Part shown: positions 3,713-54,099 of the stretch, piece after piece
Layout: the number at the start of each line of letters is the position of its first letter
Position numbering within the stretch: the stretch's first letter is position 1
Source: Bacteroidales bacterium
GTDB taxonomy: Bacteria > Bacteroidota > Bacteroidia > Bacteroidales > VadinHA17
Reading direction: 5' to 3'
DNA length: 64,000 nt
Assembly (NCBI GenBank): GCA_033791445.1
Contig: JASJGS010000243.1
Coordinates: forward strand, 3,069 to 67,068
Translations under genes and position numbers: made by a program
The notes under the pieces: model-generated
Databases searched by the model: none
What the model was told of the DNA's origin: nothing
Seen by the model: only the letters and a program-made list of their open reading frames with translations

Positions 3713-5983
3713 TTAACTTCTGGTTTTAAGAATTTGATGTAATTTTTCAATAAACTGTTCCACATTTGAACGGTTAAAGCACATTGGTGGCTTAATCTTT
3801 AAAATATTTTCATAGGGGCCATCCGTTCCGCTTAAAATAAAACTATTCTTCAACTGATTTTTTACAAAGGAGGCCAATTCTGTATTCGCAACCAGATTTT
3901 CATCCACAAATTCTATGCCCAAAAACAATCCCAGGCCACGAATATCTCCCATGGCTGGAAATTGTTTTTGCAGCGATTCTAATTCCTTTACAAAATATTC
4001 TCCTGTATCTCTGGCATGTTCCGATAATTTCTCCTCTTCTATCACCTCCAGGACCGCTTTTGCTGCTGCACAGGAAACTGAATTTCCGCCAAATGAACTG
4101 AATAACTCTATGCCGTTTGCAAAAGCATCTGCTATTCTTTCTGTAGTTACAACAGCTGCAACAGGGTGACCATTTCCCATAGGTTTTCCAAGTACTACAA
4201 TGTCGGGTATAATATCATGCATCTGAAATCCCCAAAAATATTCTCCCAGCCTTCCAAAGCCAGTTTGAACCTCATCAATTATGCTTAAGATATTATGTTC
4301 CTCAAAATAGGATTTCATTGCTTTCAAATAACCCGGTGCCAAGGGAACCTGTCCACCACAACCCGAAATAGACTCTCCGATAAAGGCTGAAGGAATTATA
4401 CCCTTCCCAATTAAATTATCAATTACTCCAGTTGCCTCTTTCCCATATGAATCAGCATCAGAAAACTTGCCATTGTATAGCTTAGGAAGTGAAAGTTTTG
4501 TAACCTTATCTGATAACCCCCTACCCCCTTTTCCATCAAATTTATAGGAGCTAACATTTATTCCAGTATTGGTAATTCCATGATATCCCTGATCCAATAC
4601 AAGCATATGCTCTCTTCCTGTGAAGACATTGGCCATTCGTATGGCCAGGTCGGTTGCTTCGCTGCCAGAGTTTACCAGAAATACCTTATTAAGAGTTGGT
4701 GGGAAGTATGTAAGTAGTTTCTGGGTGTAATCAACAAATGTATCGTAAACATAGCGTGTATTCGTGTTGAGCAGGCGAAGTTGTTTGGAAATTGCCTTCG
4801 AAACCGAAGGGTGGCAATGCCCAACATGAGGAATATTGTTGTAAGCATCAAGATAGGTATTCCCCTCCTGATCGTACATATACTGGAAGCTTGCCCCAGT
4901 CATATAGATGGGAGTGTGGTAGCTCAATCTTAACGATTTTCCCGTATTCCTTTCTCGTGCAGAAACTAATTTCTTTTTTATCTCTTTATAATCTCCAGAT
5001 TTATAACCTGCTGCTTCTAAAAATTGCTCCTGAACCCAAACAGGATTGATAGTTATCCATTTTTCCATAAGGCTCCAGGCCGGTTTCTCGCTAATAAGGA
5101 TATATTCAGTATCCTCACCTTTTGCTTTCGCTACAGCAGAACTACACAAGCTAACACACAACCGAGCCGGAACAAGATAGTAAATCATCTTCAACTCTTT
5201 TTCGGTCAATGGATATATCGCCTGATATCCTTCAATGAGTTTTTTAGCGGCCTGGATTGGCTTTTCCTTTTCAAACATAATATAGCTAAGGGCAATAGCC
5301 AATTCATTTACCAGGGGAGAATAGCAAATATCCCCAAAATCAATTACTCCGTTAATTATTTTACCATCTGTGAGTACATTCTGGATATTTAAGTCGCCAT
5401 GAATAATGCTGTATCTTAAATCTTGAAGATGGGGCAATACAAATTGTTCATATTGATCAAAAAAGTATTCAACTAACTTCCTTTTTTCTGGCTCTTGAAT
5501 ATATTTTGCTTTTGACTTATTTAACAGGTTGTGCTGCAAGTCCCATAATAATTTTCGGCTTTCAATAGCCGAGCTTCTCTTATCCTTTAAGCTGACATTC
5601 AGCTCTGCAATAGCTTTCCCAAAATTAAAGAGTAAGGTGTCAGAATGTCTCACCTCATCCAGAAATTGCCCTTCAATAAAGGGAACAAGCCTTGAAAATG
5701 TTTGATCATTGTGTTCATGTATGGCTTTCCCTTTTCTATTTAAGGATATTGGAAGTTGAAAGGGTAGTTTAGGTGAAATCTCATCAAGTATTTTGTTTTC
5801 CGCTTGAATCAATTCAAGCTCTCTAATATCTCGATAGTGTTTTAAAACAAAAAATTCATTTTCTTCTGTCTGAATTTTATAATTATGAGAAATATAGCCT
5901 TCAAGCTTATCTATTCTTACCGGTGCGATATTATATGATTGCAATAAATGTTCCACAGAAATAGATTGTGTATTCTTTACCAA
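3713..5983 (-). CDS. Fused phosphotransferase (APH/hydroxylysine-kinase-like) and class III PLP aminotransferase/phospho-lyase
   Basis: N-half HGDLN..NVL and IDFGD; C-half YLDAYNN.PHVGHCHP, VNSGSEA, DEVQTGFGR, LGKPMGNG, SSFGGN. Confidence 0.9.
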   Translation of the reverse strand: MVKNTQSISVEHLLQSYNIAPVRIDKLEGYISHNYKIQTEENEFFVLKHYRDIRELELIQAENKILDEISPKLPFQLPISLNRKGKAIHEHNDQTFSRLVPFIEGQFLDEVRHSDTLLFNFGKAIAELNVSLKDKRSSAIESRKLLWDLQHNLLNKSKAKYIQEPEKRKLVEYFFDQYEQFVLPHLQDLRYSIIHGDLNIQNVLTDGKIINGVIDFGDICYSPLVNELAIALSYIMFEKEKPIQAAKKLIEGYQAIYPLTEKELKMIYYLVPARLCVSLCSSAVAKAKGEDTEYILISEKPAWSLMEKWITINPVWVQEQFLEAAGYKSGDYKEIKKKLVSARERNTGKSLRLSYHTPIYMTGASFQYMYDQEGNTYLDAYNNIPHVGHCHPSVSKAISKQLRLLNTNTRYVYDTFVDYTQKLLTYFPPTLNKVFLVNSGSEATDLAIRMANVFTGREHMLVLDQGYHGITNTGINVSSYKFDGKGGRGLSDKVTKLSLPKLYNGKFSDADSYGKEATGVIDNLIGKGIIPSAFIGESISGCGGQVPLAPGYLKAMKSYFEEHNILSIIDEVQTGFGRLGEYFWGFQMHDIIPDIVVLGKPMGNGHPVAAVVTTERIADAFANGIELFSSFGGNSVSCAAAKAVLEVIEEEKLSEHARDTGEYFVKELESLQKQFPAMGDIRGLGLFLGIEFVDENLVANTELASFVKNQLKNSFILSGTDGPYENILKIKPPMCFNRSNVEQFIEKLHQILKTRS

Positions 5984-50286: not shown

Positions 50287-51435
50287 ATGAAATTATTCAG
50301 GCACATTGTATTTTTAGCACTATTCATAGGTGGCATTTTGTCTGCTTCAGGTCAGGATAAAAAATTTGCTTTTAATGGCTACCTGAGCAATATGCAAACA
50401 GTCATGTTTGAAAAGTGGAATGAAGATTGGTTGATTGAAAGTCAGTTTCATAATAGACTGAATTTTAGGTTTTATGCCAATGAGAAGTGGACTTTTGACC
50501 TGGAGTTGAGAAATAGATTGTTGTATGGAGACCTGGTTCGTTTTATCCCTGATTATTCTGAAATAGTTAGTAGTGATGGTGGATGGATGAATTTATCCTG
50601 GCTGATACTCAATGAACCATCCTTTTTTCTCTATTCCACTATTGACAGGGTCTGGATAGATTATAACTCTGGCTATTTTCAGTTACGGGTGGGAAGACAA
50701 AGAATAAACTGGTCGCAAGCCCTGGTCTGGAATCCCAATGATATTTTTAATGCATATTCCTATTTTGACTTCGATTATATTGAACGTCCCGGAAGCGATG
50801 CCGTTAGGGTCCAGTATTATACCGGCAGCTCCTCCTCCATAGACCTTGCAGCAAAAGTGGACAGTGCCAATAAGGTAACAGCAGCAGGGCGTTATGTTTT
50901 TTCTGCATTTAATTACGACATACAATTTTTAACCGGGGTTTTTGAAAACGACGATTATATATTAGGTGCGGGATGGGCCGGAAACATAAAAGGAGCTGGA
51001 TTCAGGGGCGAATTTACCTGGTTTCATTCCTTACATAACTCTCACCCTGAGCAATTTATGTTTTCCATATCAGGAGATTATACTTTCCCGAACTCCCTGT
51101 TTATTGGACTTGATTTTCTTTATTCCAATATCGAATATGATTTTGATGGGTTTGGAGATTATCTAATCTCTTCACTCAATGTTAAGAATATCGCCTTTAC
51201 CGATTACAATATACTTGCACAGATTTCATATCCTATAACACCTCTGCTGAATGGATCTTTTGCGTGTATCTACTACCCCACTGAACAAGGATTTTACCTT
51301 GGGCCTTCCATTGATTATTCTATTCTTGAAAATTTGACTCTTTCCTTTGTTTTTCAATACTTTCAGGGAAAATTCGGAACCGATGTAATTAATAGAACAA
51401 CATTTGGATTCCTCCGATTTAAATGGAATTTTTAA
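50287..51435 (+). CDS. Outer-membrane beta-barrel protein
   Basis: Signal peptide; RVGRQRINW....WNPNDIFN, ERPGSDA; C-terminal FKWNF. Confidence 0.78.
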   Translation: MKLFRHIVFLALFIGGILSASGQDKKFAFNGYLSNMQTVMFEKWNEDWLIESQFHNRLNFRFYANEKWTFDLELRNRLLYGDLVRFIPDYSEIVSSDGGWMNLSWLILNEPSFFLYSTIDRVWIDYNSGYFQLRVGRQRINWSQALVWNPNDIFNAYSYFDFDYIERPGSDAVRVQYYTGSSSSIDLAAKVDSANKVTAAGRYVFSAFNYDIQFLTGVFENDDYILGAGWAGNIKGAGFRGEFTWFHSLHNSHPEQFMFSISGDYTFPNSLFIGLDFLYSNIEYDFDGFGDYLISSLNVKNIAFTDYNILAQISYPITPLLNGSFACIYYPTEQGFYLGPSIDYSILENLTLSFVFQYFQGKFGTDVINRTTFGFLRFKWNF

Positions 51436-51454
51436 AATATTTGACCTAACCTAG

Positions 51455-51494
51455 CATTTTGACTCTTCGACTTTTCAACTCCTGGACTCTTGGA
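51455..51494 (+). repeat. Degenerate 8-bp tandem repeat, 5 units (upstream array)
   Basis: cattttga ctcttcga cttttcaa ctcctgga ctcttgga. Confidence 0.85.
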
Positions 51495-51588
51495 CTGTTT
51501 CTTTTTTCTACCCACAATAATTGTTTTGGTTAATAAATTATCTCAAGATTCTATAACCATCCCTTTACGAAATCCGTAAAACCATTCT

Positions 51589-51612
51589 GTCGAAAGTCAA
51601 AATGTCAAAAAG
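51589..51612 (-). repeat. Inverted copy of the 8-bp repeat (3 units)
   Basis: Minus strand reads ctttttga cattttga ctttcga c. Confidence 0.75.
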
Positions 51613-51976
51613 TGAAATGGAAAAGGCAAAAAGATTCGAAGAATTATGGGTTTGGCAACAAGCACGTGAATTAGTTATGAAAACATATAATGATTTCCCA
51701 AATGGTTCTTCCTTTAATGATTATGGTTTTCTCAATCAGATCCAGCGAGCCAGTATTTCGATAATGAACAACATTGCTGAGGGTTTTGAACGCCATACTG
51801 AATTTGCACGGTTTCTTGATATTGCAAAAGGATCTTGTGGTGAGGTGCGAAGCTTATATTATACCGCAGAAGACTTAGGCTATATCAAATCTTCAATTGC
51901 AGAGGAGAGACGAACCAGGGCAAAACAAATATCTGCTGGAATTGCATCTCTTACCAAATATCTGCGATCTTCCTGA
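51602..51976 (+). CDS. Four-helix-bundle protein (23S rRNA IVS / TIGR02436-like)
   Basis: FEEL.VWQ.AR, QIQRAS.SIM.NIAEGFER, FL.IAKGS.GEVRS; alternative start at 51617. Confidence 0.92.
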   Translation: MSKSEMEKAKRFEELWVWQQARELVMKTYNDFPNGSSFNDYGFLNQIQRASISIMNNIAEGFERHTEFARFLDIAKGSCGEVRSLYYTAEDLGYIKSSIAEERRTRAKQISAGIASLTKYLRSS

Positions 51977-52011
51977 AAGTAATTTAGGCCCTAATAAACT
52001 CTACTAGCTGC

Positions 52012-52226
52012 TTCCAGGACCCTTAGATCCATATACTTTTTGTCTTTTATACTCTTAGACTCATAGACTTTTGTACTCCTAGGCCTTTTGACTCTTGCAC
52101 TTTTCGACCTTTGACTTTTAGATTTGTTGACCTTAAGACCCTTCGACTTTTTGTCTTTTGTACCTTTTTACTTTTGTACTCTTGGACCTTTTGGCTCTTA
52201 GACTTCTGGACTCCCCGACTCTTAAC
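52012..52226 (+). repeat. Degenerate 8-bp tandem repeat, about 27 units (downstream array), consensus CTYTTNGA
   Basis: e.g. ctcttaga ctcataga cttttgta ctcctagg ccttttga ctcttgca cttttcga; one 7-nt unit at 52108. Confidence 0.9.
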
Positions 52227-52336
52227 ATCTGAAATTGATTATTTTCTTACCTTTAAAGTCTTTGTTTAGAATAGACTGCTTAAGTTTATTGTGGAACTAA
52301 CAGCTTATAAAACATTATTTTTGAAATCAGCTATCT

Positions 52337-53464
52337 ATGAAAATATCATCCAATTTCGATGGTGGAAATATTAAGGTTTTATCGATTGATTCGATGGACG
52401 ATATCCAACTTGAAATCCGAAAGGACACCTTATCAGATTTTTCACAATGGTTTTATTTCAGAATGCAGGGTGCTGCTGGCTATCCATGCAGCATCAAAAT
52501 CTTGAATGCCGGGGATACTTTTGAACCAGATGGCTGGAAAGATTACAATGCTGTGGCATCTTACGACCGACTGAACTGGTTTCGTGTTCCCACATCATTT
52601 AATGGCCAGGTACTTAGTATTGAGCACAAACCAGAGTTTAATTCAGTTTTCTATGCTTATTTTACTCCATTCTCCTATGAGCAGCATTTAGATATGGTTC
52701 ACTCTGCCCAGATTTCACCTCTTTGTGTACTGGAGTCGCTTGGGGATACTGTCCAGGAGCGGGATATAGATCTGTTAACTATCGGAGATCCTGGTGATGA
52801 CAAAAGGAAAATATGGCTTATTGCCAGGCAGCATCCGGGTGAAACAATGGCATCATGGTTTATGGAAGGGTTTATCAGCCGATTGTTAGACGAAAGTGAC
52901 GCCGTCTCCAGGAAGCTTCTTCAAAAAGCTGTTTTCTACCTCGTTCCCAACATCAATGTGGATGGTTCCATGCTTGGTAATTTAAGGGTTAACGCTGCAG
53001 GGAGAAACCTCAACCGCGAGTGGGCTAATCCAAGCAAGTCTAAGAGTCCTGAAGTATATCATGTACTCCATAAAATGGAAGAGACTGGGGTAGACCTGAA
53101 CCTTGATATCCATGGAGATGAATCTCTGCCATACAATTTCATATCTTCCATTCAAGGCATACCCGCTTTTAACGAGAGGCTAAAAACTCTTCAGGACAAG
53201 TTTCTATCCAGGTGGATAGAGGTAACCCCTGATTTCCAGATAGAACATGGATACAAAAAAGATGAACCAGGGAAAGCAAATCTGAATATTTGTTCCAAAC
53301 AGATCGGCCAAAAATTTAATTGCCTCTCTCTTACCGTTGAAATGCCATTCAAAGACAACAAAAACTTACCCTATCCTGCCACAGGATGGTCTCCTGAAAG
53401 ATCAGCAATTTATGGAGAATCTGTTCTAAATGTAATTCTTTCCATTGTGGATGATCTTCGCTAA
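52337..53464 (+). CDS. M14 family cytosolic-type zinc carboxypeptidase
   Basis: NFDGGNI, QWFYF, ARQHPGE, N.DG...GNLR.N..G.NLNREW, LDIHGDE, LTVEMPFKD. Confidence 0.92.
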   Translation: MKISSNFDGGNIKVLSIDSMDDIQLEIRKDTLSDFSQWFYFRMQGAAGYPCSIKILNAGDTFEPDGWKDYNAVASYDRLNWFRVPTSFNGQVLSIEHKPEFNSVFYAYFTPFSYEQHLDMVHSAQISPLCVLESLGDTVQERDIDLLTIGDPGDDKRKIWLIARQHPGETMASWFMEGFISRLLDESDAVSRKLLQKAVFYLVPNINVDGSMLGNLRVNAAGRNLNREWANPSKSKSPEVYHVLHKMEETGVDLNLDIHGDESLPYNFISSIQGIPAFNERLKTLQDKFLSRWIEVTPDFQIEHGYKKDEPGKANLNICSKQIGQKFNCLSLTVEMPFKDNKNLPYPATGWSPERSAIYGESVLNVILSIVDDLR

Positions 53465-53481
53465 CTAACATCACATAAATC

Positions 53482-54099
53482 ATGGAGAAATATTTAAATT
53501 TTGCCAAATACTTTTACATATGCATTGGATTATTCACTATTCTATTTTGCATATCGGTACCTGTCACTAAAATGGAAAAGCAACTCCGTCGGTTTTACGA
53601 ATCAGATTTAAAATTCAATAAAAAAGAAGCTGAAAAGGATTTTAAACTGAACAATTATAATACACAGAAAAAACGCATTGAAGATTTAAATTTTGCAGTT
53701 GATCAAACAGCCAATCAAATAAGTATCTTAATATTTAATGCCGAAATTTTGAATGATTCTATTCTTAGAATGATGAATGATCCTATTGGTATTGCCGGCC
53801 TGTCTGACTCCCTGGCAGTATTGGATAAAACAATTAGACAGAGTGAATTGCTGGTTGATTCATTAAACAAAGTATTTGAAGAAAACTCGAGTAACTTGCT
53901 TAAAATGATGGAAGAGTACGATAAAAAGGACCAGGAAATTAAGCTTATGACAATCGAGGCAGATGGCCTGAGAAAATTCATTTTCACATCAAAAATACTT
54001 CTGATCACAAATCTTGCATTATTTGTATTAACACTATTCCTTGGAGTTATCTTACTAATAAAAGGATTGGCAATGCGGAGGATAAAAACACCATTATGA
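53482..54099 (+). CDS. Hypothetical membrane protein with coiled-coil periplasmic domain
   Basis: TM at each end, heptad-like middle. Confidence 0.7.
   Translation: MEKYLNFAKYFYICIGLFTILFCISVPVTKMEKQLRRFYESDLKFNKKEAEKDFKLNNYNTQKKRIEDLNFAVDQTANQISILIFNAEILNDSILRMMNDPIGIAGLSDSLAVLDKTIRQSELLVDSLNKVFEENSSNLLKMMEEYDKKDQEIKLMTIEADGLRKFIFTSKILLITNLALFVLTLFLGVILLIKGLAMRRIKTPL

Follow-up and report, generated by a model that had tools for sequence, protein, structure and literature searches.

A PF05635 gene bracketed by short tandem arrays in a Bacteroidales genome appears to belong to a widespread cassette whose arrays may be sites for its own protein

Introduction

To our knowledge, no function has been assigned to the PF05635 or "S23p" protein family, which has solved structures, to the intervening sequences (IVSs) of 23S rRNA or to the heptamer-type arrays of intergenic DNA, although all three have been known for decades. 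The cyanobacterial heptamer arrays carry the name STRR. The 23S rRNA IVS is considered to be a selfish insertion that was acquired horizontally (PMC4990558). Here we describe a locus at which a gene of this family and arrays of this general kind occur together. It lies in a 64-kb stretch of DNA (64,000 nt of contig JASJGS010000243.1, assembly GCA_033791445.1, a Bacteroidales bacterium of the VadinHA17 lineage), hereafter the window, in which a small PF05635 gene is bracketed by degenerate arrays of 8-nt units.

Several earlier descriptions bear on this arrangement. TAACTGA heptamer arrays occupy intergenic positions in Beggiatoaceae, Cyanobacteria and Bacteroidetes, are often located just 5' of start codons and can be missing at the same junction in close relatives; their author postulates a repeat-binding protein, as yet unidentified and perhaps mobile (PMC4679880). 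GGGAATC arrays in Xanthomonas form 70–75 convergent pairs per genome, and their function is described as unknown (PMC4692102). Members of the protein family are reported to form pentameric rings (PMC4990558, citing Lin 2006), and Avd, which belongs to the same superfamily, matches PF05635 (PMC10053308). Within cas loci, 18 family genes have been described, one example being between cmr3 and cmr2 (PMC3936711), a location that fits an insertable cassette.

Our data connect the PF05635 family, the 23S rRNA IVS and the heptamer-type arrays. The gene is usually framed by inverted arrays, the type of repeat unit tracks the protein clade across phyla, and gene and arrays are present or absent together.

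Results

We read the filled and the empty form of the window's junction directly from the sequences. A genome of the same genus (G002; its M14 protein is 86% identical to the window's) has both flanking genes, with an orthologue of the 382-aa putative outer-membrane protein adjoining the M14 gene, and between them a 126-nt spacer with no arrays and no PF05635 gene. Because the G002 sequence resumes at window position 52232, where the window's AAATTGATTATTTTCTTACC matches AATTTAATTATTTTCTTACC of G002, the inserted block can be delimited as in Table 1. These are almost exactly the limits proposed in an earlier, model-made reading of the window from its letters (the sequence-only reading), which had taken gene and arrays to be one unit inserted between two unrelated genes and had suggested looking for an empty site in a relative.

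We also compared the region with metagenome contigs from four independent runs, of marine sediment or other marine origin. Two of these runs, X7 and X9, come from two further studies and contain pieces identical to the cassette-bearing form. In run X4, from another study, a 9986-nt contig (depth 17) joins position 51456 to position 52086 and is ~99% identical on both sides of the skip, with 255 nt on the shorter side; 11 letters fit both sides. This allele keeps an array and has lost or never had the intervening PF05635 gene: it may be either a deletion between the direct arrays or an ancestral array into which the gene segment was inserted, and it provides one route from cassette to solo array. 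With G002, X4 and the form shared by the window, X7 and X9, the junction is thus seen empty, with a solo array and with the full cassette.

The arrays around the gene fall into three groups, which we call a, b and c (Table 1). Of the units in array c, downstream of the gene, 25 are 8 nt long and one, at 52106, has 7 nt. Over the 25 octamers the counts at successive positions are G18, A21, C23, T18/C7, T14/C11, T19, T23 and N; positions 1–3 and 6–7 are conserved and position 8 is free. The fraction of matching letters is 0.56–0.59 at lags 8, 16 and 24 and 0.14–0.40 at the remaining lags. The spaced pattern GACN5GACN5GAC has 2 matches in the window, both within array c, where 0.05 are expected, and this count was reached in 0 of 100 shuffles. 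At 207 nt, array c is longer than the longest single row reported by Tandem Repeats Finder (TRF) among 340 arrays at other family loci; since those arrays have a median of 38 nt and a maximum of 197 nt, the window's downstream arm is exceptionally long.

Array a, upstream, has its units in an 8-nt register at ~51461–51500: GACTCTTC, GACTTTTC, AACTCCTG, GACTCTTG and GACTGTTT. Array b, whose units read GTCGAAAG TCAAAATG TCAAAAAG TG..., covers ATG 51602, ATG 51617 and the first codons of the gene, and TRF reports a period of 8 at 51588–51610. It forms inverted pairs with array c (51593–51620 with 52139–52166, 28 nt at 71%; 51595–51613 with 52035–52053, 19 nt at 79%) and is complementary to array a (51593–51610 with 51457–51474, 18 nt at 83%); in all, there are several inverted pairs of 18–19 nt at 74–83%. 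Together these arrays display the features of short-period arrays: they are head-to-tail, degenerate, intergenic, of period 8 and variable in copy number between close relatives, being missing from G002 and shorter in the X4 allele.

Part of what the sequence-only reading had said of the arrays stands. Its consensus, CTYTTNGA, is GACYYTTN circularly permuted; its five upstream units, its 8-nt register with a single 7-nt unit and its statement that the motif occurs nowhere else in the window all agree with the counts above. Its downstream array of about 27 units at 52012–52226 is real, with a count of 26 and slightly narrower limits. It went wrong in placing all units in the same orientation, having overlooked array b, which is reversed.

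The gene is a member of PF05635 (E 9.9e-28, 96.9 bits against a cut-off of 33.8) and of TIGR02436 (93.9 bits against a cut-off of 24), as the four-helix-bundle assignment of the same reading had implied. Its nearest solved relative by sequence is PDB 2gsc_A (XCC0516; E 5.6e-12 over residues 7–120). As a family member, the protein would be a four-helix bundle and may assemble into a pentameric ring. The family motif GxxRxxxSxxxNxxE (PMC3936711) is present as QIQRASISIMNNIAEG, with R, S, N and E in register and Q in place of the first G. Translation probably starts at ATG 51617 and not at ATG 51602, because the nearest homologues begin MEKAKRFE. The gene is the sole open reading frame (ORF) within the cassette, and its protein has no match in PADLOC or PHROGs. 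The sequence-only reading had called it a lone gene, which is correct for the window; the genome (G000) has three PF05635 genes, two of them at contig ends.

The association of gene and arrays recurs widely. At least one PF05635 gene is present in 34 of the 41 genomes searched, namely the window's own and 40 relatives. Cultured bacteria with such loci include Marinifilum flexuosum DSM 21950 (L098), Labilibaculum manganireducens (L090) and Ancylomarina salipaludis (L089). We assembled 228 family loci in three sets. The relatives set comprises 72 loci, drawn from the window's genome and from 25 further genomes of its order (the 3 loci of the window's genome, the best match per genome and 40 further matches from well-assembled genomes); the wide set holds 80 relatives of the window's protein from named public genomes; and the third set holds the 76 loci with usable flanks among 80 relatives, likewise from named public genomes, of a paralogue with heptamer arms. 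Arrays were called by TRF (period of at least 5, at least 2.5 copies, score of at least 30) within 260 nt upstream and 300 nt downstream. An upstream array was found at 59/72, 61/80 and 50/76 loci of the three sets, a downstream array at 59/72, 62/80 and 46/76 (pooled, 167/228 or 73%), and both at 49/72, 47/80 and 35/76. By comparison, among 1500 random ORFs of G000, 71 had an upstream array and 69 a downstream array (~5% each) and 4 had both, and segments 640–1000 nt away in the same family loci held an array in 16 of 196 cases. The base period over the 340 arrays is 7 in 173, 8 in 86, 9 in 36 and some other value in 45.

For each locus we aligned the upstream flank with the downstream flank read as reverse complement, taking as threshold a score of 13.5, the 99th percentile of cross-locus pairs. 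This score was exceeded at 51/70 loci of the relatives set, 65/80 of the wide set and 39/76 of the third set, against 11 of 1500 control ORFs. The usual geometry is therefore one of inverted arms, in which the upstream array is normally the reverse complement of the downstream array. The window's own locus, with 13.5 inverted and 18 direct, is atypical. Terminal inverted repeats able to close a stem are clear at other family loci and are represented in the window by weak pairs.

The arms also have a fixed polarity. A clear inverted pair is present at 126 of 152 loci; in these, the upstream arm has more G than C in 114 and is purine-rich in 105, and the downstream arm has more C than G in 115. 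This skew implies that the orientation of the gene is fixed relative to its arms. The upstream arm commonly stops at or just 5' of the start codon.

The sequence of the repeat unit follows the protein. The nearest relatives of the window's protein, at 53–71% identity, come from a broad range of phyla or major lineages, among them Rikenellaceae, Nitrospirota, Pyrinomonadaceae, Pontiella, Gemmatimonadota, Thermodesulfobacteriota, Phycisphaeraceae, Verrucomicrobia, Planctomycetaceae, Neomarinimicrobiota, Marinilabiliales genera, Lentisphaeria and Caldithrix. With the window's locus and its closest same-order relative (L026) they make up the window's clade of 25 loci, 18 of which have at least four periodic GTC units. 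The clade consensus is RRGTCNAARR upstream and its complement downstream, which is the window's GACYYTTN on the other strand, and within the arms 56% of successive GTCs have a spacing of 7–9 nt, versus 7.8% in the rest of the loci. A second clade, from candidate-phyla-radiation bacteria, Flavobacteriales, Victivallales, Flexilinea and others, has 9-mers of the AAAGTTYAT type. A third has heptamers that include TCAGTTA, the reverse complement of TAACTGA.

The mean cosine between the 5-mer profiles of arms is 0.24 for proteins below 45% identity and 0.45 for those above 65%. In a Mantel test of arm similarity against protein identity, the observed value was reached in 0 of 500 permutations, and a three-state unit label, traced on a FastTree tree built from 150 of the 152 proteins (after removal of two with fewer than 85 aa), requires 27 changes; over 300 shuffles the number of changes averaged 49.9 and never fell below 44. 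Kinship among rows inflates both tests. The decisive point is that every unit class is found in unrelated hosts whose G+C contents differ greatly. The unit goes with the protein clade and not with the host.

The flank periodicity that the sequence-only reading proposed to look for at other family members, against control genes, is found, as is the covariation of repeat consensus with protein phylogeny. Its direct-bracket geometry does not carry over to the family: inverted arms are usual, and the same-orientation upstream array of the window is atypical and forms an endpoint of a natural deletion or insertion allele. With the block missing from G002 and the same association recurring across the 228 loci, gene and arrays very probably form one inherited, insertable unit with clade-specific repeat units.

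Some loci carry traces of rearrangement. At L023 (G002:C11:166069–169383) and L016 (G019:C31), the blocks that contain the PF05635 genes are duplicated in tandem; direct similarity between the upstream and the downstream flank is strong at L023 (score 101), and at L016 the 5' end of the gene is repeated together with its arrays. Cassettes can evidently multiply locally. In the window's genome, the third PF05635 gene (C97:3600–4405, L003) has upstream of it two tandem partial copies of its first ~20 codons, each followed by octamer arrays, and downstream a 25-nt unit, in at least five copies, that reads as the upstream units in reverse complement; the end of the contig falls within this array. 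The layout suggests repeated unequal recombination at such loci. In the downstream arm of L021 (G005:C16), a run of N breaks a long GGTATCG/CGATACC heptamer arm. Together with the many PF05635 matches that sit within a few hundred bases of a contig end, this run indicates that the arrays break short-read assemblies, and PF05635 copy numbers in draft genomes are probably underestimated.

Other contigs of the window's genome carry additional arrays of period 7 or 8. One of them, one-directional and of period 8, extends over ~235 nt with NNNGTTCC/NNGTTTCA units at C44:20129–20363 (L163, L166) between a CYTH-domain gene and an aspartokinase gene, with no PF05635 gene nearby. It is missing from the same junction in the same-genus genomes G002 and G003, and we regard it as itself an insertion or expansion. 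AACAGTT/ATCAGTT heptamer arrays, whose reverse complement is near TAACTGA, adjoin ordinary genes (for example, a cupin gene) at C228:21367–21497, C239:2170–2261 and 4795–5153, C203:7080–7259 and C224:4612–4830, several of them at contig ends. A PF05635 gene with such units was not found in the 86.7%-complete G000 assembly; relatives have one (L011, L040). A stretch of ~150 nt containing ...AGAACTTTAGGCATT... occurs twice on C221 (120–400) and once, reversed, on C239 (4900–5080), each copy embedded between differing period-7 and period-8 arrays. Its units are similar to the arms of the C97 cassette, and it may represent a small RNA or a derivative that has no gene. A further candidate solo array, C225:154–200, was rejected: it matches the start of contig C158 in reverse complement and is the same upstream arm, not a separate array.

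The non-repetitive spacer between arrays a and b is possibly the promoter region of the PF05635 gene; no promoter-like or terminator-like site stands out in it, and the promoter and terminator scan (6 promoter-like sites versus 3.2 expected, 0 terminator-like) was uninformative. Rfam, rRNA included, yielded no family at the gathering threshold across the window, and at E up to 1 the single match in 51300–52400 was a chance snoRNA (E 0.81). The reverse-transcriptase family PF00078 had 0 matches in the assembly, which is 86.7% complete. These searches agree with the statement of the sequence-only reading that no reverse transcriptase or rRNA lies nearby. On the 3' side of the M14 gene, a 205-aa ORF (53482–54099, +) with no Pfam match has a 201-aa counterpart in G002.

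Table 1. Coordinates of the cassette, its parts and its neighbours in the window
Feature	Position	Strand	Basis or remark
Whole inserted cassette, ~775 bp, between outer-membrane-protein gene and M14 gene	51455-52231	+	empty site in G002
Array a: 5 octamer units, GACYYTTN type, oriented like array c	51456-51500	+	lag-8 match 0.68
Segment missing from the X4 allele, 629 nt	51457-52085	+	array a joined to array c via shared 11-nt TTTTGACTCTT
Non-repetitive spacer within the insertion	51501-51587	+	segment missing from G002
Array b: ~6 units, reverse orientation, GTCRAAAR type	51588-51645	+	TRF, inverted pairs
Four-helix-bundle gene, PF05635/TIGR02436	51602-51976	+	ORF, 124 aa, 14 kDa, profile matches
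Array c: 26 head-to-tail units, pyrimidine-rich, G-poor	52018-52224	+	consensus GACYYTTN
Octamer unit of the window cassette, candidate cognate site			GACTCTTN
Upstream neighbour: 382-aa putative outer-membrane protein, outside cassette	50287-51435	+	no Pfam/NCBIfam match
Downstream neighbour: M14 carboxypeptidase, outside cassette	52337-53464	+	PF18027 (E 7.6e-38), PF00246 (E 9.5e-18)

Discussion

We interpret the window as containing one copy of a widespread, horizontally spread cassette in which a PF05635 gene is bracketed by arrays of 7–9-nt units. This copy has a short upstream arm (array b), a very long downstream arm (array c) and an extra array in the same orientation as the latter (array a). 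The structure of the cassette is well supported. From the sequences of the arms we infer, at somewhat short of an even chance, that the cassette's protein binds the repeat units. Taken whole, the reading of an IVS-like, horizontally spread cassette whose arms are the cognate sites of its own protein seems to us slightly favored over its negation, a grading that blends our high confidence in the one unit with our lower confidence in binding.

If this reading is right, the units would be candidate cognate sites for a ring-forming protein, with approximately one unit per protomer, and might be read in the way that TRAP reads spaced triplets. Binding of the arms, or pairing of one arm with the other in single-stranded RNA or DNA, could then control translation at the start codon, or it could control the processing or propagation of the cassette. 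The extra array a may recombine with the downstream arm, which would remove the gene and leave a solo array behind. Because the GAC/GTC core is conserved and the spacer positions vary, a protein site fits the arms better than does a plain stem. A stem would constrain all positions alike, and a core with free spacers therefore looks more like a reiterated protein site.

Several observations weigh against this reading. Between 18% and 39% of flanks per set have no detectable array, the third set is clearly weaker (39/76 inverted), and the control ORFs were drawn from one genome (G000). The window's own inverted arm is weak (28 nt at 71%, 18 nt at 83%), and the 801-nt cassette RNA has a folding z-score of −0.17, with 9 of 20 shuffles folding at least as well, and so lends no support to a globally stable structure. 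Mismatches between arms have no wobble bias (259 of the G.U type, 264 of the A.C type), so pairing in the sense RNA is not specifically supported. Arrays also stand alone beside ordinary genes. At the CYTH–aspartokinase junction, a hidden Markov model of our own for the family finds a family gene in 0 of 14 upstream regions, that of G000 included; this site thus gives no support to the view that solo arrays are relics of cassettes. Finally, the link between unit and protein could reflect co-inheritance of a mobile unit instead of recognition, since kin share labels.

A first alternative, which we judge unlikely, is that the cassette is purely an RNA hairpin of the IVS type. In that case the arms would pair in read-through transcripts, RNase III would cut the stem and the insertion would be excised from the host RNA; the protein would make no sequence-specific contact, and the likeness of units within a clade would be due to descent only. 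The Coxiella IVS offers a precedent, in which a family gene occupies a loop whose 28-bp closing stem is cut by RNase III in vitro (PMC4990558), and both the inverted arms at 51/70, 65/80 and 39/76 loci and the family genes found inserted within cas operons (PMC3936711) are what such a hairpin would lead one to expect. The arms may pair as in Coxiella, and three results speak against such pairing as the main explanation: the lack of an excess of G.U-type over A.C-type mismatches, a fold of the window's cassette no better than that of shuffles, and a long arm with no partner of similar length in the window. A GTC/GAC core that is kept across phyla at 53–71% protein identity while neighbouring positions vary, and the existence of one-directional solo arrays, also count against the hairpin.

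Still less probable, in our view, is an element of the DNA-transposon kind. Here the inverted arrays would serve as terminal repeats for a recombinase or transposase encoded elsewhere, or for recombination that depends on a hairpin or cruciform, with the helix-bundle protein as an accessory or a passenger. The presence/absence polymorphism in G002 and X4, the occurrence of close protein relatives in many phyla and in differing gene contexts, the strand symmetry of the arm mismatches and the fixed orientation of the arms relative to the gene would all suit such an element. However, the cassette lacks the hallmarks of a transposon or of miniature inverted-repeat transposable elements: it encodes no transposase, and no clear target-site duplication is evident by eye at its junctions. 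Its arms are tandem arrays of highly variable length, not unique termini, and simple recombination through 11 shared bases explains the X4 allele. We know of no nuclease or transposase activity in PF05635.

That the arrays are ordinary slippage-prone intergenic repeats (of the STRR or long-simple-sequence-repeat kind) and that the gene merely settles in the same permissive spacers is strongly disfavored and, to our minds, very improbable, for although gene-less short-period arrays exist in the window's genome and free-standing intergenic repeats have been described (PMC4679880, PMC4692102), arrays flank the gene on both sides at 49/72, 47/80 and 35/76 family loci versus 4 of 1500 control genes, their polarity is fixed, the unit class clusters on the protein tree, and array and gene are jointly missing from G002.

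The reading of a cassette whose protein recognizes its own arms may have wider relevance. MacGregor (2015) asked which mobile protein binds such repeats, and PF05635 is a concrete candidate. As a tentative extension, and one that we consider rather doubtful in its full form, PF05635 proteins might be the missing sequence-specific partners of 7–9-nt arrays (TAACTGA, GGGAATC and STRR-type) in the genomes of Bacteroidota, Cyanobacteria, Beggiatoaceae and Xanthomonas. Every protein clade would have a unit of its own to read, one per protomer; a gene with its inverted arrays would be an autonomous element of a new, mobile or regulatory kind, and solo arrays would be gene-less derivatives acted on in trans. 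Modular recognition, with clade-specific units and one unit for each protomer, would amount to a new natural code for reading periodic nucleic acid and would also explain the assembly breaks at PF05635 genes.

It is useful to contrast the cassette with systems that resemble it at various distances. TRAP is a ring-shaped oligomer that reads spaced (G/U)AG triplets, and the ToxIN protein assembles with an RNA of tandem repeats that is encoded next to the protein's gene. Both are analogies only: there is no homology, and the putative sites here are 7–9-nt units located on both sides of the gene in opposite orientation. Repetitive extragenic palindromic (REP) elements and their RAYT gene provide a further analogy, in that a gene is flanked by short repeats that are also found alone in the genome; the repeats of the cassette, however, are tandem arrays and not single palindromes. 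The Avd protein of diversity-generating retroelements (DGRs) shares the fold and the superfamily of the window's protein. Unlike a DGR, however, the cassette has no reverse transcriptase in its assembly (86.7% complete), and flanking arrays are not a DGR feature. On the reverse-transcriptase search, the cassette is not a DGR.

The TAACTGA and GGGAATC arrays are closer, being likewise intergenic and built of tandem units of ~7 nt, and one PF05635 clade has TCAGTTA units. They differ in that the arrays described here are tied to one gene family, and the period in the window is 8, not 7. The terms S23, four-helix and intervening sequence do not occur in the main texts of the two reports (PMC4679880, PMC4692102), whose supplements may list neighbouring genes, and our literature search found no description of tandem-repeat arms around PF05635 genes.

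The closest described system is the 23S rRNA IVS of Coxiella burnetii and Leptospira, in which terminal inverted repeats flank a PF05635 family gene (PMC4990558). In contrast to the IVS, the window's cassette sits between protein-coding genes and not in helix 25 or 45 of 23S rRNA. Whereas the IVS is closed by a unique 28-bp stem, the arms of the cassette are variable-length tandem arrays of 7–9-nt units, which in the window are very unequal and accompanied by an extra direct array. Judged by its sequence, the cassette does not appear to be an rRNA IVS itself and would best be filed as a variant of the IVS-type PF05635 cassette.

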